A stretch of 15,751 nucleotides of DNA from Archangiaceae bacterium (GCA_043750125.1 JAYVCD010000126.1:1-15751), one strand, 5' to 3'. Numbered from the stretch's first letter, positions 1-11,678 are shown. The notes: generated from the sequence alone by a model not told the origin. Made by a program: numbers and translations.

Positions 1-381
1 GACGTTTTCGGTCAGCACCGATCGGTTCGTCAGGGCCCGCGTCACCGCGTGGGCCAGCACTTCGGGGGTGATCGGCTTGACCAGGTAGTCAGAGGCTCCG
101 TACTTGATCGCCCGAACTGCCGGGTCGACCTTGTCGAGCGCCGTGATCACCACGACCTCGACCCCGGGGTGCTCCATCTTCACGTACTGCAGCAGCGCCA
201 TTCCGTCGCTCTGGGGAAGAATCAGGTCGGTGACCACCAGGGCGAATTTCTGGCGAAGCAGCGCCTCTCGCGCTTCCGCCGAATTTCCAACTGCTGTCAC
301 CAGGTGACCTGCGCCCGTCAAGAAATCGCCGTAGAGCGCCCGGGCCACCTTCTCATCGTCGACGAGCAGGATGTGCGCCAT
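1..381 (-). CDS. Response regulator, N-terminal receiver domain (runs off the left edge; output domain not visible)
   Basis: Not in the ORF track because there is no stop in the window. Manual translation from ATG at 381: MAHILLVDDEKVARALYGDFLTGAGHLVTAVGNSAEAREALLRQKFALVVTDLILPQSDGMALLQYVKMEHPGVEVVVITALDKVDPAVRAIKYGASDYLVKPITPEVLAHAVTRALTNRSVLTENV. It has the acidic DD pair, the phospho-Asp (VTDLILP), the conserved Thr (VITA) and the KP motif. Confidence 0.92.
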   Translation of the reverse strand, partial: MAHILLVDDEKVARALYGDFLTGAGHLVTAVGNSAEAREALLRQKFALVVTDLILPQSDGMALLQYVKMEHPGVEVVVITALDKVDPAVRAIKYGASDYLVKPITPEVLAHAVTRALTNRSVLTENV

Positions 382-410
382 GCGAGAGCCTCGCTTAGCA
401 TTCCTGAACA

Positions 411-431
411 ACATGAGCGAGACATGAGCGA
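411..431. repeat. 10-bp direct repeat ACATGAGCGA x2 (11-bp period) overlapping the CheW-like start codon
   Basis: ACATGAGCGA at 411-420 and 422-431; the second copy contains the ATG at 424. Confidence 0.6.
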
Positions 432-1182
432 GCGTGCCCGGCGACTTTGTCTGTTGATCGAGGCAGGGCGTTCGCGTTTTGCCGTCCCAGCCACGCGCGT
501 GCTGGAAGTTGCAGTTCCCGACGCGGGCGGGGCGACCTTGCGCGGGCATCACCCCCTCGTCGATCTGTCCGTACTTCTGAGCGGCGGCCCCGAAATGCGC
601 CCGGGGACCGCGGTCTTGCTCGACACCAGCCCGACACTCGCTCTGCGGGTGAGCAGGGTTCGAGGCGTCCACGATGTCTCCGACTGCCCCTGGTTGCGGG
701 TGCCGAAGCGACTGGTTCCCACGCTCGAGCCGGCGGTGCGAGGGCTCATCGAGATCGAAGGAGAGCTGTTCTTCGAGCTCGACGCCGAGGCGCTGGCCAC
801 CGGCGTCCGGGCACCCCCGCAGCTGAAAGTCGTTGATCCTTTTGGGCCGGCGCTTGGCAGGGCGCTGGTCTTCGAGACGGGGGGGCGCCGGCTGGGCCTC
901 CCTCTTGCCTCGGTCGCGCAGGTGGTGAGCCTGGGCCCGAAGTTCTGTTCGCTGGTGGCCCAGACGGCCGCGGTCGGAGTCATCCTCCATCAGCAGCTGG
1001 CCTGGCCGGTGTTCTCAGTGCCCGGTCTGCTCGGCGAGCCGATCGTGCCCGAGCCGCTGGTCGTGCTGACCGACGTAAGAGGGGAAGGGGTGGGCTTCAC
1101 GGCCGCGCGCGCTCTGGGAGTCGTCGAAGGCCCCGGCCTGTTGGGCGTCGTGAGCCTCGAGCTCAAGCGCATGTTTTCTTGA
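424..1182 (+). CDS. Tandem CheW-like domain protein (252 aa)
   Basis: C-terminal part of ORF 49..1182. The true start is likely ATG 424 (MSERARR) because the upstream part is antisense to the response regulator. Two CheW-like repeats: LLIEAGRSRFAVPATRVLEV...LVDLSVLL...LALRVSRVRGV...VRGLIEIEGELFFELD and LVFETGGRRLGLPLASVAQVV...AVGVILHQQLAWPVFSVPGLLG...VGFTAARALGVVE. Confidence 0.8.
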   Translation: MSERARRLCLLIEAGRSRFAVPATRVLEVAVPDAGGATLRGHHPLVDLSVLLSGGPEMRPGTAVLLDTSPTLALRVSRVRGVHDVSDCPWLRVPKRLVPTLEPAVRGLIEIEGELFFELDAEALATGVRAPPQLKVVDPFGPALGRALVFETGGRRLGLPLASVAQVVSLGPKFCSLVAQTAAVGVILHQQLAWPVFSVPGLLGEPIVPEPLVVLTDVRGEGVGFTAARALGVVEGPGLLGVVSLELKRMFS

Positions 1183-1247: not shown

Positions 1248-2408
1248 ATGCCCAAGTCAGTACTCGTCGCCGACGATTCGGTCACCATTCGCAAGGTGAT
1301 TGGCCTGATCTTCGCCCACGAAGACTTCACGCTCACCATCGTCGACAACGGGCTCGACGCGATTCGCCGCGCGCGCGAGCTGCGCCCCGATGTGGTGCTC
1401 GCCGACTGCATGATGCCGGGCAAGAACGGGTACGAAGTCGCCGAGGCGCTGAAGAATGATCCGACGACCCAGCACATTCCGGTGCTGTTGCTCGCGGGCA
1501 CCTTCGAGCCCTTCGATGAGAATCGCGCCCGCTCTGTTCGCGCCGATGGACACGTGGTCAAGCCCTTCGAGAGTCAGGCTTTTCTCGACAAGGTCAAAGC
1601 GCTCGTCGGAATGCCCGCCGGGATTCCGGTGATGACCGGCTACACCCCGGTGTCGACCGGTTCGCTGCTCAACGTTGCCAAGCCTTCGACCGCGGCTCCC
1701 TCGGCCCCGATGGGAAACAACCCACGCCCGATGCCGGGCCCCGCGGGGATGCCCGGGCAGCAGCCGGGGTTGCCGTCCCGTCCGCCGGCCGGAATTCCGC
1801 TGGGCACTGTTCCCAACCTGCGCGGGCCGGGGATGGCCGGGCTGCCTCCCGCGCCCCAGATGCCGATGGGCCGACCGCCGCCTCCGCAGGGCATGCCGAT
1901 GAACCGCCCGCCGGTCGGGAACCCGATGCAGCAGCAACAGCGGCCCCCGGGTCAAATGATGGCCCCTCAGCCCGGAATGCACCCCCAGGGAATGCCGATG
2001 GCGCGCCCGCCTGGCCCCGGAATGCAGGGACAGCCTCAACAGGGTTTCCCGCGGCCTCCGGGAGGCGCTCCGATGCCGGGCGTCGCTCCGCCGCGGCGAG
2101 ATCCCTTCGGGTTGGGTGGGCCGGGCATGGCCCCGCAGCCGATGCACCCGCAGCCGGGCCAACCGCAGTTCCGTCCGCCTCCGCCGCAACAGCAACAGCC
2201 GCAGTACCGGCAGCCGCCGCCTCCAGCCCAGCCCCAGCACAATCCACTGTCGCTCGATGGTGGGGAAGCGGCGCTGCGCAACGCGCTGAGCCAGGCTTCG
2301 CGGGAAGTGATCGAGAGAATCGCGTGGGAAGTGGTGCCCCAGCTTGCTGAGACCATCATCCGGCAGGAGCTCGAGCGCTTGATAAAAGATCGCGAAGCCA
2401 AAAACTGA
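1248..2408 (+). CDS. romR: RomR-like polarity response regulator (receiver, Pro-rich linker, C-terminal helical RomR domain)
   Basis: Receiver with D9/D10, D53 and K105; ~215-aa Pro/Gly/Gln/Met linker; C-terminal GGEAALRNALSQASREVIERIAWEVVPQLAETIIRQELERL characteristic of myxobacterial RomR; located upstream of valS as in Myxococcus. Confidence 0.9.
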   Translation: MPKSVLVADDSVTIRKVIGLIFAHEDFTLTIVDNGLDAIRRARELRPDVVLADCMMPGKNGYEVAEALKNDPTTQHIPVLLLAGTFEPFDENRARSVRADGHVVKPFESQAFLDKVKALVGMPAGIPVMTGYTPVSTGSLLNVAKPSTAAPSAPMGNNPRPMPGPAGMPGQQPGLPSRPPAGIPLGTVPNLRGPGMAGLPPAPQMPMGRPPPPQGMPMNRPPVGNPMQQQQRPPGQMMAPQPGMHPQGMPMARPPGPGMQGQPQQGFPRPPGGAPMPGVAPPRRDPFGLGGPGMAPQPMHPQPGQPQFRPPPPQQQQPQYRQPPPPAQPQHNPLSLDGGEAALRNALSQASREVIERIAWEVVPQLAETIIRQELERLIKDREAKN

Positions 2409-2422
2409 GCCAAGAAGGGGTG

Positions 2423-5400
2423 ATGGCTGAGAACGAACCCCAGAAAACGCCGTACGTTCCCTACAACCCGACCGCGGTTGAGCAGCGGTGGTACCCGTTT
2501 TGGCTGGAACGCGGATACTTCAAGGGCGATCCGCACTCGACCAAACCGGCGTTTTCGATCGTCCTTCCTCCTCCGAACGTCACCGGCAGCCTTCATCTGG
2601 GCCACGCGCTCACCGCGACGATTCAGGACATCTTGTGCCGCTGGAAGCGGATGAGCGGCTTCAACGTCCTCTGGCTGCCCGGCACGGATCACGCGGGCAT
2701 CGCGACTCAGATGGTGGTCGAAAAAGCGATCAAGGCGACCGAGAAGAAGACCCGCCACGAGCTGGGACGGGAAGAGTTTCTCAAGCGCGTCTGGGACTGG
2801 AAAGAAAAGTACGGGAAGCGCATCGGGGAACAACACCAGGTGCTCGGCGCCTCTCTCGACTGGAGCCGCGAGCGCTTCACGATGGACGAAGGTCTTTCGG
2901 TGGCGGTGCGCGAAGTCTTCGTGCGCCTGTACGAAGAGGGGTTGATCTACCGCGCGGCGAAGCTCATCAACTGGTGTCCTTCGTGTTTGACCGCGTTGTC
3001 GGACCTCGAAGTGGAGCACGAAGAACGAGAGGGCACGCTCTGGTCGATCGCGTACCCGGTGAAGGGCAGCGACGAGAAGCTGGTCGTGGCCACCACCCGG
3101 CCTGAGACCCTTCTCGGAGACACCGCGGTCGCGATTCACCCCGCTGACCCGCGCTTCATGCAACTGCATGGCAAGACCGCCCTGCTGCCTCTGACCGGGC
3201 GCGAGATTCCGATCATCCTCGACGCCGAGCTGGTCGACATGAAGCTCGGAACGGGGGCGGTGAAGGTGACGCCCGCGCACGATCCGAACGACTACCAGAC
3301 GGGCCTTCGCCACAAGCTGCCGATGATCTCGATCTTCGATGAGCGCGGCGTGGTGAATGAGAACGGCGGTTCGTACCAGGGGCTCGATCGCTTCGCTGCG
3401 CGCAAGCAGGTGCTGCTGGACCTCACCGAGCAGGGACTGTTGATCGAAGAGAAGAAGCACGCCCTGTCGATCGGCACCTGCCAGCGCTGCGCGACCGTGG
3501 TCGAGCCGCGACTGTCGCCGCAGTGGTTCGTGAAGGTCGAGCCGCTTGCGAAGGAAGCGATCGCTGCGGTCGAAGACGGTCGCACCCGGTTCGTCCCCGA
3601 GAATTGGACGAACACCTACATGTCCTGGATGAAGAACATCCACGACTGGTGCATCAGCCGCCAGCTGTGGTGGGGCCATCAGATTCCCGCCTGGTACCCG
3701 GCGTCGGGTCCCCGGCTGCCCAACGGCGAGCTCGATTTCGGAAGGGGCCAACCGGTCGTCGCCCGAAGCAACCCCGGCGTCACGGCGGACAATCCCAAAG
3801 GCGAATGGATTCAGGATCCCGACGTCCTCGACACCTGGTTCAGCTCGGGGCTGTGGCCGTTCTCGACGCTCGGCTGGCCAGAGAACACTCCGGCTCTGAA
3901 GACCTGGTACCCGACCTCGGTGATGGAAACGGGCCACGACATCATCTTCTTCTGGGTCGCCCGGATGATGATGATGGGTCTGCACTTCATGAAAGACGTG
4001 CCTTTCAAGGTCGTCTACCTGCACGCGATGGTGCGGGACGAGAAGGGCGAGAAGATGTCGAAGACGAAGGGGAACGTGATTGATCCTCTTGACGTGATCC
4101 GCGGGTGTCCCCCGGAATCGCTGCAGCCGGCCCTGCGAAACAAGTATCCGAAAGGGTTGGAGCCCAGCGGAGCCGACGCGCTTCGCTTCACGCTGGCCTC
4201 GCTCACCGCGCAGGGGCGGGACATCAAGCTCTCGCTCGAGCGGGTCGAGGGCTACAAGGCGTTCTCGAACAAGATCTGGAACGCCTCGCGCTTCGCGATG
4301 ATGCGGGTCGGCGACGACTTCAAGGCCGACGATCTGTTCATCAAAGATCGAAAGTTGTCTCTGGCCGACCGGTGGATCCTCTCGCGACTGAACAAGGCGG
4401 TGTCTGGAACCCAGGCCGCGTTGCTGGCCTACCAGTTCGGCGAAGCGGCCTCGACGCTGTACCAATTCCTGTGGCGCGAGTTCTGCGATTGGTACATCGA
4501 GCTGTCGAAGGGCGCGCTCGAAGGCGAGAACGCCGAAGTGAAGGACTCGACGCGCGCAGTGCTGGTCTTCTGCCTCGATCAGATTCTTCGCCTGCTGCAC
4601 CCGTTCATGCCGTTCATCACCGAAGAGCTCTGGCAGACCCTGCCGATCACCCGTCCGACCGAGTCGATTTCGATTTCTCCCTACCCCGAGGTGAACGTTC
4701 GCCTCGACGACCCGGTGGCTGAAGCCGAGATGAGTCCAGTCATTACGGCGATCGAAGGGTTGCGCACCATTCGCGGGGAAAGCGGGCTCAACCGAAATGT
4801 GAAAATCGACGCCCACATTCAGAGCTCCAGCGCGCAGACCCGCGAGCTGCTCGTGAAGTGGAAGGCGTATCTGACGCCCCTGGCCGGCCTGGCGTCGTTG
4901 AGCGTGACTGGGCCCGGCCCCAAACCCCCGCAGTCTGCCGCGGAGATCAACGCGCAGATGGAGATCTACGTGCCCCTGGCTGGAATCATCGACCTCGCCG
5001 AGGAACGCGGGCGGTTGCAAAAGGAAATTGGACGCGTCGAGAACGAGCTCATTGGCTTGAAGCGGAAGCTCGACAATGCCGGGTTCGTCGCGCGTGCTCC
5101 GCCTGAGGTGGTCGAGAAGGATCGCGCCCGCGTTGCCGAGCTCAGCGAGCGCATCGTCAAGATCAACGAGAACCTCAAACGGATCGCGCCGATCGAGTTG
5201 AAGATTGCCGAGCCGTCCGAGGGTCTCGTCGATCTCGCCGAAGAGCTGAAGGATGAGCTCGCCAGCATCTCGTTGCCCCTTCCGGATCGCCAGGTGACCG
5301 AGGCGCTCGATCGTCTGCGAGAGGGCACGGCCCAGGGGCTCACGTCGCGCGACCGCACCGATCTGGGCGTAGCCTACATGAACATGGGACTCGTCGACGA

Positions 5401-5623
5401 CGCGGTGCGCGAGTTCAGCAAGGCCAAAGAGTCGGAAAAGGAAGAAGCATCCGCATCTGGGAAGTCCGGAACCGCTCGGAAAACGAAGAGCGTCATGAGG
5501 CTCAAGCCCGTGTCGAAGAACGTGGCCTCGAAGAAGGCGGCTCCGAAGAAGGCGGCTCCGAAAAAGGCGGCTCCGAAAAAGGGCTTCACGAAGTCGCGGA
5601 AGGAGAAGTCGCGTGCCCGCTGA
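2423..5623 (+). CDS. valS: Valine--tRNA ligase with C-terminal extension
   Basis: PPPNVTGSLHLGHA (HIGH motif), GTDHAGIATQ, ATTRPET editing motif, DWCISRQLWWGH, DVLDTWFSS, KMSKT, GADALRF, and the C-terminal coiled coil (KLDNAGFVARAPPEVVEKDR). Start is either GTG 2420 or ATG 2423. Confidence 0.98.
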   Translation: MAENEPQKTPYVPYNPTAVEQRWYPFWLERGYFKGDPHSTKPAFSIVLPPPNVTGSLHLGHALTATIQDILCRWKRMSGFNVLWLPGTDHAGIATQMVVEKAIKATEKKTRHELGREEFLKRVWDWKEKYGKRIGEQHQVLGASLDWSRERFTMDEGLSVAVREVFVRLYEEGLIYRAAKLINWCPSCLTALSDLEVEHEEREGTLWSIAYPVKGSDEKLVVATTRPETLLGDTAVAIHPADPRFMQLHGKTALLPLTGREIPIILDAELVDMKLGTGAVKVTPAHDPNDYQTGLRHKLPMISIFDERGVVNENGGSYQGLDRFAARKQVLLDLTEQGLLIEEKKHALSIGTCQRCATVVEPRLSPQWFVKVEPLAKEAIAAVEDGRTRFVPENWTNTYMSWMKNIHDWCISRQLWWGHQIPAWYPASGPRLPNGELDFGRGQPVVARSNPGVTADNPKGEWIQDPDVLDTWFSSGLWPFSTLGWPENTPALKTWYPTSVMETGHDIIFFWVARMMMMGLHFMKDVPFKVVYLHAMVRDEKGEKMSKTKGNVIDPLDVIRGCPPESLQPALRNKYPKGLEPSGADALRFTLASLTAQGRDIKLSLERVEGYKAFSNKIWNASRFAMMRVGDDFKADDLFIKDRKLSLADRWILSRLNKAVSGTQAALLAYQFGEAASTLYQFLWREFCDWYIELSKGALEGENAEVKDSTRAVLVFCLDQILRLLHPFMPFITEELWQTLPITRPTESISISPYPEVNVRLDDPVAEAEMSPVITAIEGLRTIRGESGLNRNVKIDAHIQSSSAQTRELLVKWKAYLTPLAGLASLSVTGPGPKPPQSAAEINAQMEIYVPLAGIIDLAEERGRLQKEIGRVENELIGLKRKLDNAGFVARAPPEVVEKDRARVAELSERIVKINENLKRIAPIELKIAEPSEGLVDLAEELKDELASISLPLPDRQVTEALDRLREGTAQGLTSRDRTDLGVAYMNMGLVDDAVREFSKAKESEKEEASASGKSGTARKTKSVMRLKPVSKNVASKKAAPKKAAPKKAAPKKGFTKSRKEKSRAR
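5531..5582 (+). repeat. 15-bp coding tandem repeat (AAGAAGGCGGCTCCG, ~3.4 copies) encoding KKAAP
   Basis: aagaaggcggctccg aagaaggcggctccg aaaaaggcggctccg aaaaagg in the valS tail. Confidence 0.9.
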
Positions 5624-6479
5624 TTCGTATCTAGACCGCCTGATCGACCTGGCTCTCGACGAGGATCTGAGCGCCGCGGGGGACGTAACCACCGTGGCCC
5701 TCGTCACCCCCGAGGTGCAAGGGCGCGGGGAGCTGTGGGCCAAAGAAGAAATGGTCCTCTCGGGGCTCGCCGCCTTCGCGCGGGTCTTCGAGCGGTTTGA
5801 CCCCACGGTACGCCTCGAGCTCGAGGCCGCCGACGGAGAGTCGACGGGCAAGCTGCAGCGGGTTGGAAGACTGGAAGGCCCCCTTCGATCGCTTCTCATC
5901 TGCGAACGGACCGCGCTGAACATCGTTCAACGCACCAGCGGAATCGCAACGATGGCCGCGCGCGCCGCAGCAGTGGTCGAAGGCACCGATTTGAAAATCC
6001 TCGACACCCGCAAGACTTCGCCCGGGATGCGGGCACTCTCCAAGATGGCAGTGCGCGACGGGGGCTGTACCAACCACCGTTTTGGACTGTTCGATGGGGT
6101 GCTGATCAAGGACAACCACATCGCGGCGGTCGGCGGCTCGGTCAAAGAAGCAATGCGCCGAGCGCGCGCGAATGCTCCCCGGCTGTTGAAGATCGAAATC
6201 GAAGTCAGCTCGCTGTCTCAGCTGGAAGACGCGATCGTCGAAGGCGCCGACATCGTGATGCTGGACAACTTCACCGACGCGCAGATCGTCGAAGCGGTCA
6301 AAAAGACGAAGGGCAGGGTGGAGCTCGAAGTCTCGGGTGGCATCACGCTCGAACGGCTTCCCACCCTCGCAAAGATGGGCGTCGACTTCGTCTCGATGGG
6401 AGCACTCACCCACTCGGCGCGCGCAATGGATCTTTCCCTCGAGCTCATGACCCAGAAGAGCAATCGCAAAGCGCGCTGA
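5613..6479 (+). CDS. nadC: Nicotinate-nucleotide diphosphorylase (carboxylating), quinolinate phosphoribosyltransferase
   Basis: ALDED..GDVTT, ERTALN, SGIAT, DTRKT, HRFGLFDGVLIKDNH, IEIEV, IVMLDN, EVSGG, GALTHS; AAGGAG SD before GTG; 11-nt overlap with the valS end. Confidence 0.97.
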   Translation: MPADSYLDRLIDLALDEDLSAAGDVTTVALVTPEVQGRGELWAKEEMVLSGLAAFARVFERFDPTVRLELEAADGESTGKLQRVGRLEGPLRSLLICERTALNIVQRTSGIATMAARAAAVVEGTDLKILDTRKTSPGMRALSKMAVRDGGCTNHRFGLFDGVLIKDNHIAAVGGSVKEAMRRARANAPRLLKIEIEVSSLSQLEDAIVEGADIVMLDNFTDAQIVEAVKKTKGRVELEVSGGITLERLPTLAKMGVDFVSMGALTHSARAMDLSLELMTQKSNRKAR

Positions 6480-7453: not shown

Positions 7454-7924
7454 TCAATAACTCACGGGCGCGCGGAAGACGAGTCGGTCTTGCACAAGCT
7501 GAATCATCCGATGGACCCCCTTCACTTTCGAGAAGTGGCGGTCTGGGGTGAAGGCGGCGCGGATCTTCAGCTCTTCGAGCAGCGCGAACGACGTGCAGTC
7601 GGTGAACGACAACCGGGGGGTGTCGGGCGCGAGGCGGCGAAAGCAACGCAGCGCCTGAGCCCGCCGCCCAGAATCAATCGACAGCAGCACCAGCTGACCG
7701 GCCGCCACTTCGGCTTCGAGATCGTCGAGAAACGCCATTGCGGGCCGGGCTCCGGCGGCCGCGTGAAGTCCGGTCAGTGCTTCATCGAGGACGTAATCCG
7801 AGGTGACCGCGATCCACCCGTTCTCCTCGATCCACTCGCTTGCCGCGACGGCCGCAGGGTGCCCCGCATCTTGTGGGTTCGCGAGCGCCACATACGCCCA
7901 GGTATCGAAGAAAACGGTGCTCAC
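7454..7924 (-). CDS. vapC: PIN-domain ribonuclease toxin (VapC family)
   Basis: VFFDTWA, VTSDYVLDE, LSFTDCTSF and FTPDRHF supply the four PIN acidic residues; the GTG start overlaps the upstream stop (GTGA). Confidence 0.88.
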   Translation of the reverse strand: MSTVFFDTWAYVALANPQDAGHPAAVAASEWIEENGWIAVTSDYVLDEALTGLHAAAGARPAMAFLDDLEAEVAAGQLVLLSIDSGRRAQALRCFRRLAPDTPRLSFTDCTSFALLEELKIRAAFTPDRHFSKVKGVHRMIQLVQDRLVFRAPVSY

Positions 7925-8238
7925 TTTCGCCGCCGCTTCGGCTTTGCCTTCGACGTTCCGTAATCAGGCGGTCGTTCAGCAACCCCGTACACCAGCGAAT
8001 CGATGCGGGCGCTCAAGTTCACCGGCCCATTGAAATACCCGGCTCGCATTCGGGCTCGGGCCGCGCCGGCACGAAGCTGCAGCTCTTCCCGATCGCCCAG
8101 GTTCTGATACCGCTCGAGCACCACCCGGGCCCCTTCGGTCAGCAAATCGCGCACCGACTTTCCGGCACGGGCGGCAGTGGTTTTCAGCGCTCTCAACAAC
8201 GCCGCATCGAGCTCGAAAGTGGTCTTGGTCTTCATCAC
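7921..8238 (-). CDS. Ribbon-helix-helix (CopG-like) antitoxin, VapB-type
   Basis: KTKTTFELDAALLRALKTTAARAGKSVRDLLTEGAR fits the RHH strand-helix-helix pattern; directly upstream of and overlapping the PIN gene. Start is GTG 8238 or ATG 8235. Confidence 0.8.
   Translation of the reverse strand: MMKTKTTFELDAALLRALKTTAARAGKSVRDLLTEGARVVLERYQNLGDREELQLRAGAARARMRAGYFNGPVNLSARIDSLVYGVAERPPDYGTSKAKPKRRRK

Positions 8239-9039: not shown

Positions 9040-9043
<4 letters not shown>
8282..9043 (-). CDS. sdhB: Succinate dehydrogenase/fumarate reductase iron-sulfur subunit
   Basis: [12 protein letters not shown]...C ([2Fe-2S]), [11 protein letters not shown] and [12 protein letters not shown] cluster motifs; GTGA overlap with the sdhA stop. 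Confidence 0.96.
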
Positions 9044-10949
<1,906 letters not shown>

Positions 10950-10953
<4 letters not shown>

Positions 10954-11678
10954 GGCGCCCTCATCAAGCCGAACAACACGCCGAACGGCACGCTGATGAA
11001 GGCCAGGCAGATGACGTACGCGACGACTCGGCTTGTTCTCCGAATGAAGGGAGACCACGACGCGCCCCACGCCCCCAGATGCAGGAACAGGCTCGAGAGG
11101 CCGTGCGCCAGGTGCTCTGCCAGCAGCAGCTGCGCGAGCACGTAGATCGCGACAATCCCCGGAACCGAGAACGATCGGTAGACCATCGCGTAGACATCGA
11201 ACGAGCCGTTGGCCAGCCGGCTCACGTGGTTCGGGTTCGTCAAGTGCAGGGTGAAGTGGGCCAGGTGGTAGAGGACGAACGCCCCCACCATCAATCCCGA
11301 GATCGCCATCGTGCGACTGCCCAGGCTCGCCGGGGTCTTGATCTGGTGCGCGTACGCCACCGGTCGCGCCTTCAGGTTCATCCGGGTCGACCGCAGCGCC
11401 GCCCAGATGTGAATCGGAAAGCCGAGCAGCAGCGCACTGCGCACCGCCCACACCAGCGGAGGGTTCGAGGCCAGCGCCGCCGCATACCCATTCATCGCAT
11501 CCGGCCCGCCCCACATCGCCAGGTTCCCAATCAAGTGGGCGACGACGAAGCCCCACAGCCCCAGCCCGGTCAGAGCCATCACCACCTTCGACCCCACGGA
11601 CCCCATCGCGAACCGAATGACCCCTGCGAGCAGGGGCTGAGGATGCGACTTGAGGTGTGTGTCCAGCGCGTCGGCCAT
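10950..11678 (-). CDS. sdhC: Succinate dehydrogenase cytochrome b subunit (single membrane anchor, b558 family)
   Basis: About five hydrophobic segments; [25 protein letters not shown] and EHLAHG haem-ligand histidines; GAGGGAG SD upstream; first gene before sdhAB. Confidence 0.92.

Follow-up and report, generated by a model that had tools for sequence, protein, structure and literature searches.

Eukaryotic aminoacyl-tRNA synthetases are well known to carry appended domains that determine where the enzyme resides or add a second function; in bacteria such domains are rare. The CAAD domain of cyanobacterial valyl-tRNA synthetase (ValRS) sits inserted within the enzyme, and histone H1-like Lys/Ala/Pro tails bind DNA, on nucleoid or transcription proteins. 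CAAD-anchored ValRS, to which the original prediction appealed as a precedent, does exist: in this bacterial enzyme an additional domain determines location or partners (PMC4893482). Several eukaryotic synthetases, namely GlnRS and ValRS of yeast and LysRS of mammals, have lysine-rich appended domains that are reported to bind tRNA non-specifically in cis (PMC3306390, PMC6213541; yeast GlnRS and ValRS in PMC3306390). SgmX of Myxococcus xanthus is a protein of about 1060 amino acids with 14 TPRs in three blocks: eight pilus-activating TPRs, three that bind FrzS (TPR9-11; PMC9811614) and a C-terminal triad, TPR12-14 or M-domain, which according to the available parts of the sources binds MglA-GTP and not MglA-GDP (PMC7668184), with a KD of 0.6 µM (PMC13408092). 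Binding of MglA-GTP by the C-terminal part of SgmX, on which the original prediction built, is well documented (PMC7668184, PMC9811614, PMC13408092). The mimB frameshift at Gly802 removes TPR12-14 and abolishes MglA dependence (PMC7668184). The MglA partners named in the accessible text of PMC13408092 are SgmX, GltJ, AglZ and MreB, and RomX is argued there to be a further effector.

We analysed a window of 15,751 nucleotides from an Archangiaceae bacterium (GCA_043750125.1, JAYVCD010000126.1:1-15751). On its + strand, valS (2420..5623; ORF list and translation) encodes a valine–tRNA ligase of 1067 amino acids including a C-terminal extension. The product scored 1209 bits with NCBIfam NF004349 (cut-off 704) and 1120 bits with TIGR00422 (cut-off 612), which places it among the class I valine–tRNA ligases, and the signature motifs HLGH and KMSKT were seen in the translation. 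Pfam recovered all four expected domains, for catalysis, editing and anticodon binding as well as the coiled coil at the C-terminus (tRNA-synt_1, residues 24-605; Anticodon_1, 650-798; Val_tRNA-synt_C, 858-922). The coiled-coil tRNA-binding arm (residues 858-922; 4991..5185, + strand; E 1.2e-17) is the end of canonical ValRS and was modelled by AlphaFold2 as long helices with pLDDT 93-98. Since the Pfam core ends at residue 922, the frame runs on for 145 amino acids, in line with the roughly 145 originally predicted; the segment singled out then (5186-5428) corresponds to residues 923-1003, and the peptide quoted from it is present as written.

The extension consists of two parts, joined to the enzyme by a short acidic linker (residues 923-934; 5186..5221, + strand; net charge -2, pLDDT 62-64) with a median identity of 50% in 49 homologues. 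A conserved module of about 70 amino acids (residues 935-1005; 5222..5434, + strand; net charge -6) is modelled by AlphaFold2 with pLDDT 82-94 as four helices (939-949, 957-971, 976-988 and 992-1012), the last of which runs seven residues past the module boundary into the following segment. That segment is a disordered Lys/Ala/Pro-rich basic tail (residues 1006-1067; 5435..5620, + strand; delimited by composition and pLDDT below 57). As read from the sequence, the appendage has no hydrophobic stretch and is soluble, acidic and then basic, unlike the CAAD membrane anchor. Long ValRS of this kind are already represented in annotation resources, as NF011492 (PRK14900, long ValRS, 1044 positions) matches end to end: residues 14-1063 align to model positions 12-1018, and the extension alone matches positions 926-1026 with E 3.2e-5. 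The score of 1558 bits lies below the NF011492 cut-off of 1783, so that the protein falls outside this family, and the model names the enzyme only and says nothing on the parts or function of the extension.

An HMM built from 58 ValRS modules was run against the complete six-frame ORF set of the organism's genome (65,263 ORFs). ValRS ranked first (E 2.6e-34), followed by an SgmX-like protein that matched positions 7-69 of the 70-position model with E 6.9e-9 and was the only strong non-self match; ordinary TPR proteins of this genome reached at most 10.8 bits per hairpin. The NCBIfam model for SgmX, NF052243 (type IV pili formation protein), was matched by 19 of 19 ValRS modules (best E 1.2e-9), with the hairpin of the module aligning to model positions ~898-922 of 1065. 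Profile-profile alignment (hhalign) of the 58 modules with 30 SgmX segments gave a probability of 98.9 and E 1.3e-17 over 67 collinear columns, and a reverse search from the SgmX C-terminus matched a ValRS extension with E 3e-9. Both sequences contain an acidic DLA-x-EL helix and a second helix ending in a conserved Gly, followed by a TPR hairpin with the core D-L-G-x-A-Y-x-x-M-G-L-x-D-D-A. The matching segment of SgmX lies downstream of Gly802, inside the part lost in the mimB truncation (PMC7668184). Among the best 150 matches from a library of 1.84 billion proteins, the non-ValRS proteins matched over the whole module included seven all-TPR proteins, and ten such proteins scanned against Pfam, the seven among them, showed TPR families only (10/10).

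The likeness to SgmX is more than chance by these sequence comparisons, and the resemblance claimed in the original prediction stands: the module is, by profile homology, a counterpart of the pre-TPR segment plus one TPR of the C-terminal SgmX block. The hairpin supplies most of the significance, since an HMM of the pre-TPR helices alone found only ValRS in the own genome and not the SgmX-like protein. Homology upstream of the hairpin therefore rests on the profile-profile and collinear alignments (hhalign with the pre-TPR part alone: probability 66, P 5.6e-5) and on one intermediate form, the ValRS fragment P0143, whose second helix is SgmX-like. The enzyme itself is not an SgmX, as NF052243 scores only 20 bits on it (cut-off 1800) and matches only 25-70 residues. 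It has one TPR hairpin, formed by the final two helices of the module and followed directly by the basic tail, and not three; in the SgmX-like protein of this organism, the hairpin that matches is followed by two further TPR-like hairpins. The pilus-activating and FrzS-binding TPRs are absent from ValRS as well, and the module is attached to an enzyme. A second likeness that had been put forward, to the C-terminus of FimV, was not recovered: none of 19 modules matched any FimV model at E≤1, no FimV family was found for the extension among curated models at E≤1, and no FimV family was among the 25 listed of the 26 families matching the own SgmX-like protein at E≤0.01.

Pfam TPR models matched the extension only below their gathering scores (TPR_2, 13.1 bits, cut-off 27, E 0.11; TPR_1, 11.8 bits), so that the module is not a TPR family member by this measure. 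Positions 46-72 of its profile did align with consensus-TPR structures (8bu0; E 3.7e-13 as the sum for 8 repeats), and the modelled hairpin superposes on MamA and CTPR with 0.4 Å over 29 columns, at non-significant Foldseek E-values. Fold searches of the PDB with a 267-residue model or with the module alone gave no match at E≤0.001; the top rows were ValRS (1gax) and TPR proteins such as MamA and NlpI, none of them significant. We read the end of the module as a probable single divergent TPR hairpin.

The module is strongly conserved. Residues 957-1003, which cover the last three helices, show 77% median identity in 49 homologues, a value above those of the catalytic and editing core (71%), the coiled coil (62%) and the tail (27%), and 25 columns are invariant across 19 genomes. 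All 60 extension-bearing proteins found at E≤1e-3 are ValRS, and the net charge of 58 modules ranges from -10 to -4 with a median of -6. An assembly error, named in the original prediction as a possible flaw, or a chance extension of the reading frame is ruled out by this conservation among relatives. Among 115 genomes sampled from the same family, 88 have the module at the C-terminus of ValRS (a tally that includes one unpublished genome, G220); it is likewise present in the single genome of a second family (f2) and in one of eight of another (f4), and Myxococcus ValRS also carries it (P0061). Entire genera within the family lack it, as do most other families. In 41 related genomes, MglA was found in 39, RomR in 39 and an SgmX-like C-terminus in 40; as these polarity proteins are near-universal and the module is patchy, the module is dispensable for the polarity system.

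The tail, a part of the extension that the original prediction left unmentioned, contains 17 Lys and 5 Arg in 62 residues (net charge +18, pI 11.3). Tails of 59 related proteins are 32-182 amino acids long, with a median net charge of +27 and a median K+A+P fraction of 0.79. Seven of the 10 ValRS from other families, and those of two same-family genomes, have the tail but lack the module, and no module without a tail was seen among the ValRS examined. The tail is thus older and more widespread than the module, and a role with tRNA or nucleic acid comes first. Like the eukaryotic lysine-rich domains, it is a terminal, lysine-rich and predicted disordered segment on a synthetase; unlike them, it is bacterial, C-terminal and of Lys/Ala/Pro repeat composition, the likeness being one of composition. 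By this analogy, binding of tRNA or nucleic acid by the tail is probable. Histone H1-like tails of bacterial DNA-binding proteins have the same composition, and the tail of one relative (P0048) has a precomputed match to Pfam HC2 (PF07382); the host protein here is, in contrast, a synthetase. Literature searches for histone H1-like or lysine-rich proteins and Myxococcus found nothing relevant. A scan of the own genome for Lys/Ala/Pro-rich stretches returned one other ORF, at thresholds that the valS tail itself does not reach.

Docking of ValRS on MglA, as originally predicted, was examined by complex prediction with the ValRS module, GTP, Mg and the MglA of a same-genus genome, which was used because the contig bearing the organism's own mglA stops after the first 30 codons of that gene. 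The ipSAE values were 0.72, 0.68 and 0.68 (median 0.68), compared with 0.01 for the best of three controls, none of which was another TPR or another GTPase. In calibration, 58 of 80 solved complexes attained the ipSAE mark, as did 2 of 110 mismatched pairs, close cousins of the true partner pass too (10 of 12 colicin pairs), and the custom alignments and riding ligand used here differ from that calibration. Prediction runs agreed in at least 96% of contacts, with partner pLDDT of at least 81. Sequence searches of solved structures recovered no complex of SgmX or of MglA with a TPR, which makes it unlikely that the prediction reproduces a memorised structure. The predicted contacts fall on switch 1 and switch 2 of MglA-GTP, its nucleotide-sensitive face, and involve 20 module positions within residues 956-990 (5285..5389, + strand), as numbered on alignment A1, in which position 1 is ValRS residue 931. 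Sixteen of these 20 are at least 90% conserved, compared with 22 of 50 other positions; positions conserved in both ValRS and SgmX show no clear excess at the interface (8 of 20 vs 14 of 50 elsewhere). Charge differs between ValRS and SgmX at several predicted contacts (alignment positions 35, K/E; 47, R/E; and 58, N/E). Against binding stands the use by SgmX of a three-TPR block, where ValRS has one hairpin and two preceding helices. This one in silico prediction supports, and does not show, MglA binding, and we put binding of MglA-GTP by the module at slightly below an even chance. Searches of the literature, outside the supplements of MglA/SgmX interaction papers, found no experimental link between ValRS and MglA, and none found work on a Myxococcus ValRS C-terminal extension, on RomR and valyl-tRNA or on MglA proximity labelling with a tRNA ligase or synthetase; ValS, tRNA and miniTurbo are absent from the text of PMC11580455.

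The C-terminal appendage of this ValRS thus has two parts and is attached through a flexible linker. In the explanation that we favour, the polycationic tail is ancestral and widespread in the order and most likely adds non-specific affinity for tRNA or nucleic acid in cis, like the lysine-rich domains of eukaryotic synthetases. The acidic module, probably derived from the SgmX segment that starts the MglA-GTP-binding TPR block, was inserted between coiled-coil arm and tail, for the most part within the organism's own family. This module is most likely a protein-binding unit that may dock on the switch 1/switch 2 face of MglA-GTP, and ValRS would then serve the polarity GTPase as client, effector or sink. 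In an extended form of this proposal, which we consider quite unlikely, ValRS would be a genuine MglA-GTP partner whose availability is set by tRNA: in the free enzyme the tail might fold back on the SgmX-like module, and tRNA on the tail would free the module for MglA-GTP, or the reverse. The charging state of the translation apparatus would in this way influence front-rear polarity, the activation of pili or development induced by starvation. Alternatively, MglA-GTP could concentrate ValRS at the leading pole.

The whole extension might instead handle tRNA or nucleic acid with no link to MglA, the acidic module serving as a structured spacer or as an intramolecular mask of the tail until tRNA arrives, and the SgmX likeness reflecting only common descent of a small helical unit. 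The greater age and spread of the tail, the opposite charges of module and tail, the position of the module directly behind the arm that Pfam names as tRNA-binding and the precedent of lysine-rich cis tRNA-binding domains (PMC3306390) all agree with this. However, a spacer or mask needs neither 25 invariant columns nor an identity above that of the catalytic core, the tail to be masked is poorly conserved, other families fill the same position with a non-conserved acidic linker, and the conserved residues lie on the face through which the module is predicted to contact MglA; we regard this explanation as rather unlikely. The module could also bind a partner other than MglA, such as another ValRS, an MglA paralogue or other small GTPase, or a translation factor. 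Protein binding is a general property of TPR hairpins, the module's profile aligns with consensus TPR structures, and purified SgmX is reported in the available text as likely dimeric (PMC11580455); in addition, an MglA paralogue is encoded in the own genome (C391, 162 bits to MglA; besides the cut mglA, the only MglA-type gene assembled) and in relatives (~55% identity). The strong MglA prediction with zero-level controls, and the MglA-binding end of SgmX as closest relative of the module, make such a partner unlikely. The original prediction drew its docking argument from the neighbouring gene, and valS does lie directly behind romR: the romR-like response regulator gene (1248..2408, + strand; receiver domain 5-116, Pro-rich stretch and conserved C-terminus, as in RomR) stops 11 nt upstream, and this adjacency occurs in 19 of 25 same-family genomes, in the one f2 genome and in 9 of 10 of other families. 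It is kept, however, where ValRS has only the tail or no extension (G017, G023, G026, G027 and G032), including two same-family genomes without extension, and is hence independent of the module and uninformative on it. Nothing found ties the matching SgmX segment to receiver domains, and FrzS binds the different block TPR9-11 (PMC9811614), so that docking of the extension on RomR is very improbable. The position of RomR in the MglA GEF, taken for granted originally, is now disputed, as PMC13408092 argues in its available text that RomRX is an effector.

By its sequence relationships, a housekeeping synthetase appears to have gained a piece of an MglA-reading protein and to conserve it no less tightly than its catalytic core. 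Should the module bind MglA-GTP, it would be an unexpected addition to the short list of MglA partners and would connect translation physically with motility or development. Development in these bacteria starts on amino-acid starvation. The module would also represent a minimal MglA-binding unit of ~70 amino acids, useful for dissecting SgmX-MglA binding. If it does not bind MglA, the finding would be a lineage-specific decoration of a putative tRNA-binding tail. We found no paper describing a link of the ValRS extension to SgmX or MglA in our literature searches. Assays for MglA-GTP binding exist (PMC13408092) and Myxococcus ValRS has the module, which makes the prediction directly testable.

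Upstream of romR, the window encodes a CheW-domain protein (49..1182, + strand; Pfam CheW, E 3e-11). In M. xanthus, romR (MXAN4461) is flanked by the ValRS-like MXAN4460, and MXAN4462 has two CheW domains (PMC2034494, available text); the order CheW-romR-valS in the window matches this arrangement. Downstream, nadC (quinolinate phosphoribosyltransferase; 5613..6479, + strand; Pfam QRPTase_C and QRPTase_N) overlaps valS by 11 nt if it starts at the GTG at 5613.

The valS gene (2420-5623, + strand) codes for a product of 1067 aa. It follows a CheW-domain gene (49-1182, +) and a romR-like gene (1248-2408, +) and precedes nadC (5613-6479, +). The romR-valS gap is 11 nt and nadC possibly overlaps the end of valS by 11 nt, so that romR, valS and nadC look like one operon. 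By Pfam, canonical ValRS spans residues 24-922, with the Val_tRNA-synt_C coiled-coil arm (858-922) as last domain; the match to the standard NCBIfam ValRS model ends at residue 918. The frame stays open for a further 145 residues, in agreement with the original prediction, and the peptide quoted there was found unchanged in the valS translation; the segment it singled out (5186-5428) corresponds to residues 923-1003. The extension starts with an acidic linker of 12 residues (923-934) with low pLDDT, continues with a module roughly 70 residues long (935-1005, net charge −6) and ends in a disordered tail (1006-1067; net charge +18, pI 11.3) that has 17 Lys and 5 Arg. The SgmX-like part had been recognised correctly; the basic tail had been overlooked.

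An AlphaFold2 model calculated with 46 homologues showed four predicted helices in the module (939-949, 957-971, 976-988 and 992-1012; pLDDT 82-94), the last of which overruns the module boundary by a few residues. Helices three and four pair up in this model as one TPR hairpin. The TPR profiles of Pfam remained sub-threshold on the extension (E 0.11). Consensus-TPR structures were matched by the module profile at positions 46-72, and the modelled hairpin superimposed on MamA and designed TPRs with 0.4 Å over 29 columns; no Foldseek match was significant.

The best curated non-ValRS match of the extension was the NCBIfam SgmX model NF052243 (E 5.6e-4), which was matched by 19 out of 19 modules with a best E of 1.2e-9. 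The proposed resemblance to the FimV C-terminus was not reproduced, as none of the 19 modules matched FimV models at E ≤ 1. When an HMM of 58 ValRS modules was searched against all 65,263 six-frame ORFs of the own genome with all filters off, ValRS was found first and the SgmX-like protein next (E 6.9e-9, a single stretch of 34 bits covering positions 7-69 of the 70 in the model), while generic TPR proteins reached at most 10.8 bits per hairpin. The SgmX-like protein, P0064 (929 aa, C140:10418-13225, − strand), has NF052243 (1065 positions) as top match with 1165 bits, below the curated cut-off of 1800, and is probably an SgmX orthologue shorter than the Myxococcus xanthus protein. It contains a long acidic disordered stretch in its middle.

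Profile-profile comparison of the 58 ValRS modules with 30 SgmX segments from related genomes gave a collinear alignment over 67 columns (probability 98.9, E 1.3e-17). The hairpin alone was aligned with a probability of 99 and the two preceding helices alone with 66 (P 5.6e-5). An HMM of these preceding helices alone did not find SgmX in the own genome, indicating that most of the signal sits in the hairpin. Homology over the whole length of the module is supported by three findings: with the SgmX C-terminus as query a ValRS extension was retrieved over 92 residues (E 3e-9), the ValRS profile aligned to SgmX of family f7 across positions 3-73, and P0143, a 161-aa ValRS C-terminal fragment from a library of representatives, combines a second helix bearing the SgmX-type F-K-K-G-V signature with a hairpin and a Lys-rich tail of the ValRS type. 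P0143 might be an evolutionary intermediate between the two module types. Within the library (1.84 billion representatives), 2352 proteins matched the module at E ≤ 1e-3, mostly through the hairpin and nothing else, as is to be expected of any TPR protein. Non-ValRS proteins that match the whole module within the best 150 of these include seven all-TPR proteins; a Pfam scan of ten such matches, these seven included, showed nothing but TPR families in any of them. Judged by these comparisons, the likeness of the module to SgmX is real and specific, as originally proposed.

The extension is conserved in relatives, which argues against an assembly error. Judged by Pfam domains, the 60 proteins found to carry it at E ≤ 1e-3 are all ValRS, and they come from sources named Myxococcaceae, Archangium, Hyalangium and Myxococcus. 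The module is part of the M. xanthus ValRS (MXAN4460 family). In a census of 301 genomes of the phylum, including the unpublished genome G220, the window's family had the ValRS-type module (E ≤ 1e-21) in 88 of its 115 genomes; the single genome of family f2 and one of eight of f4 also had it, and the search did not find it in the remaining genomes. Weaker matches near 1e-15 in f7 and f21 are of the SgmX type, and the weak match in genome G036 coincides with that of the SgmX C-terminus search. An alignment of 19 modules from different genomes contained 25 invariant columns. Compared with 49 full-length homologues, the protein of the window has a median identity of 77% in residues 957-1003. Its catalytic/editing core reaches 71%, the anticodon-binding domain 65%, the coiled coil 62%, the linker 50% and the tail 27%. 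Constraint on the module is therefore at least as strong as that on the enzyme core. MglA and RomR were each found in 39 and an SgmX-like C-terminus in 40 of 41 related genomes. The module, by contrast, is absent from entire genera, and its role, whatever it may be, is accessory.

The order CheW-romR-valS is the same as that described for M. xanthus (PMC2034494). Within the window's family, romR adjoins valS in 19 of 25 genomes; in the remaining six, the genes lie on separate small contigs or romR gave no match. It does so as well in the single f2 genome and in nine of ten genomes from other families of the order. Its position directly upstream of valS is an old and stable gene order. The adjacency is also kept in five genomes (G017, G023, G026, G027 and G032) whose ValRS lacks any extension. 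It does not track the extension and cannot be taken as a sign of contact between the module and RomR or MglA; the argument from the position of valS behind romR fails. The assignment of RomR/RomX as exchange factor is itself disputed (PMC13408092).

SgmX is described as containing 14 TPRs, of which TPR12-14 bind MglA-GTP but not MglA-GDP (PMC7668184, PMC9811614), with a KD of 0.6 µM (PMC13408092, in which SgmX-Ct was also assayed by anisotropy of a fluorescent nucleotide). The mimB allele carries a frameshift after Gly802 of the 1060-residue SgmX, by which TPR12-14 are lost (PMC7668184). On the SgmX model of 1065 positions, the hairpin of ValRS aligns to 898-922, inside the part removed by mimB. 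Two further TPR-like hairpins come after the matching one in the SgmX-like protein of the own genome. ValRS therefore has the entry helices of this block and just one of its repeats, whereas in SgmX the block works as three.

For complex prediction, MglA of a same-genus genome was used, because the own mglA ends at a contig edge after 30 codons (C37:4137-4779, a contig of 4779 bases with mglB at its end). The rest of the gene was not found in the assembly, which is 89% complete; the sole assembled MglA relative is a paralogue (C391:3650-4492, 162 bits). The substitute is identical to the own protein over its first 30 residues and was aligned with 21 relatives. Prediction of MglA with GTP, Mg and the module (module alignment A1, starting at residue 931) gave ipSAE values of 0.72, 0.68 and 0.68, whereas the best of three controls, which included neither another TPR hairpin nor another GTPase, reached 0.01. 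In the calibration of the method, this ipSAE mark was attained for 58 solved complexes out of 80 and for 2 mismatched pairs out of 110. The present runs differ from that calibration by their own alignments and riding ligand, and the method is stated to let near relatives of a genuine partner pass as well. Contact agreement between runs was at least 96% and partner pLDDT at least 81. The predicted contacts on MglA (residues 3, 12, 14, 42-47, 55-61, 73-77 and 80-95) form the surface expected for a partner specific for the GTP form. On the module side they involve ValRS residues 956-990, among them the conserved Leu, Gly and Thr of helix 2 and the Asp-Leu-Gly of helix 3; conservation reaches 90% or more at 16 of the 20 contact positions, compared with 22 of 50 other module positions. 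At several of these contacts the charge differs between ValRS and SgmX. No complex of SgmX, or of MglA with a TPR protein, was found among solved structures, making it unlikely that the prediction reflects recall of a known complex. Docking on MglA-GTP, as originally suggested, gains one positive complex prediction together with strong conservation and loses its neighbourhood argument.

The tail is conserved in composition only: in 59 relatives it measures 32-182 aa, with a median net charge of +27 and a median Lys+Ala+Pro fraction of 0.79. ValRS C-termini were inspected in genomes that gave a faint module match or none. Within the window's family, G010 and G018 have an acidic linker and a Lys/Ala/Pro tail without the module, G011 has a degenerate module plus tail, and in G017 and G023 ValRS stops at the coiled coil. 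Outside it, ten genomes from seven families of the order were covered, and three of these lack an extension. In the other seven (loci L064, L065, L066, L068, L069, L070 and L072), a long Lys/Ala/Pro tail follows a non-conserved linker that is often acidic or Pro/Ala-rich, and the module is absent. A module without a tail was not seen among the C-termini inspected. The polycationic tail seems to be an order-wide trait. On the simplest reading, it would be the original ValRS appendage in the order, and the module would have been inserted later between arm and tail, mainly in one family.

The best reading of these data is a two-part appendage in which an old tail would bind tRNA or nucleic acid and a younger, SgmX-derived module would bind MglA-GTP. 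For the tail, the best analogy is provided by yeast GlnRS and ValRS, whose terminal extensions are rich in lysine and are described as non-specific tRNA-binding domains in cis (PMC3306390). The likeness is one of composition; by this analogy we consider tRNA or nucleic acid binding probable. Binding of the module to MglA-GTP, to which the predicted complex points, is more tentative, at slightly less than an even chance. As the main rival, the module may serve the tail or the tRNA, for instance as an acidic mask, and have no partner in the polarity system. The negative charge of the module and its constant company with a basic tail are consistent with such a role, and the predicted interface and its conservation speak for MglA; we regard the rival as rather unlikely. 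With the two-part appendage as preferred reading, this ValRS would be a synthetase with an appended interaction module in which a GTPase-effector element has been reused. An existing NCBIfam model (NF011492) covers long ValRS of this kind, and a drawing of the valS-romR neighbourhood dates from 2007. A literature search covering main texts found neither the parts of the extension, nor the relation to SgmX, nor a ValRS-MglA link.

Some further observations were made. Only one own-genome ORF passed a strict filter for Lys/Ala/Pro-rich sequences (C149:18636-19025, − strand, 130 aa, with P-K-K-P-A-S-type repeats). In the window, the ORF at 9040-11556 (−) codes for 838 aa with succinate dehydrogenase/fumarate reductase flavoprotein domains, and its Pfam match begins only at residue 236-237. 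The true start may lie downstream of the listed one; otherwise an N-terminal part of about 235 aa is without explanation. Finally, a PIN-domain ORF (E 1.5e-8) and an abutting small upstream ORF on the same strand (7454-7924 and 7921-8238, both −) have the layout of a putative VapBC-type toxin-antitoxin pair.
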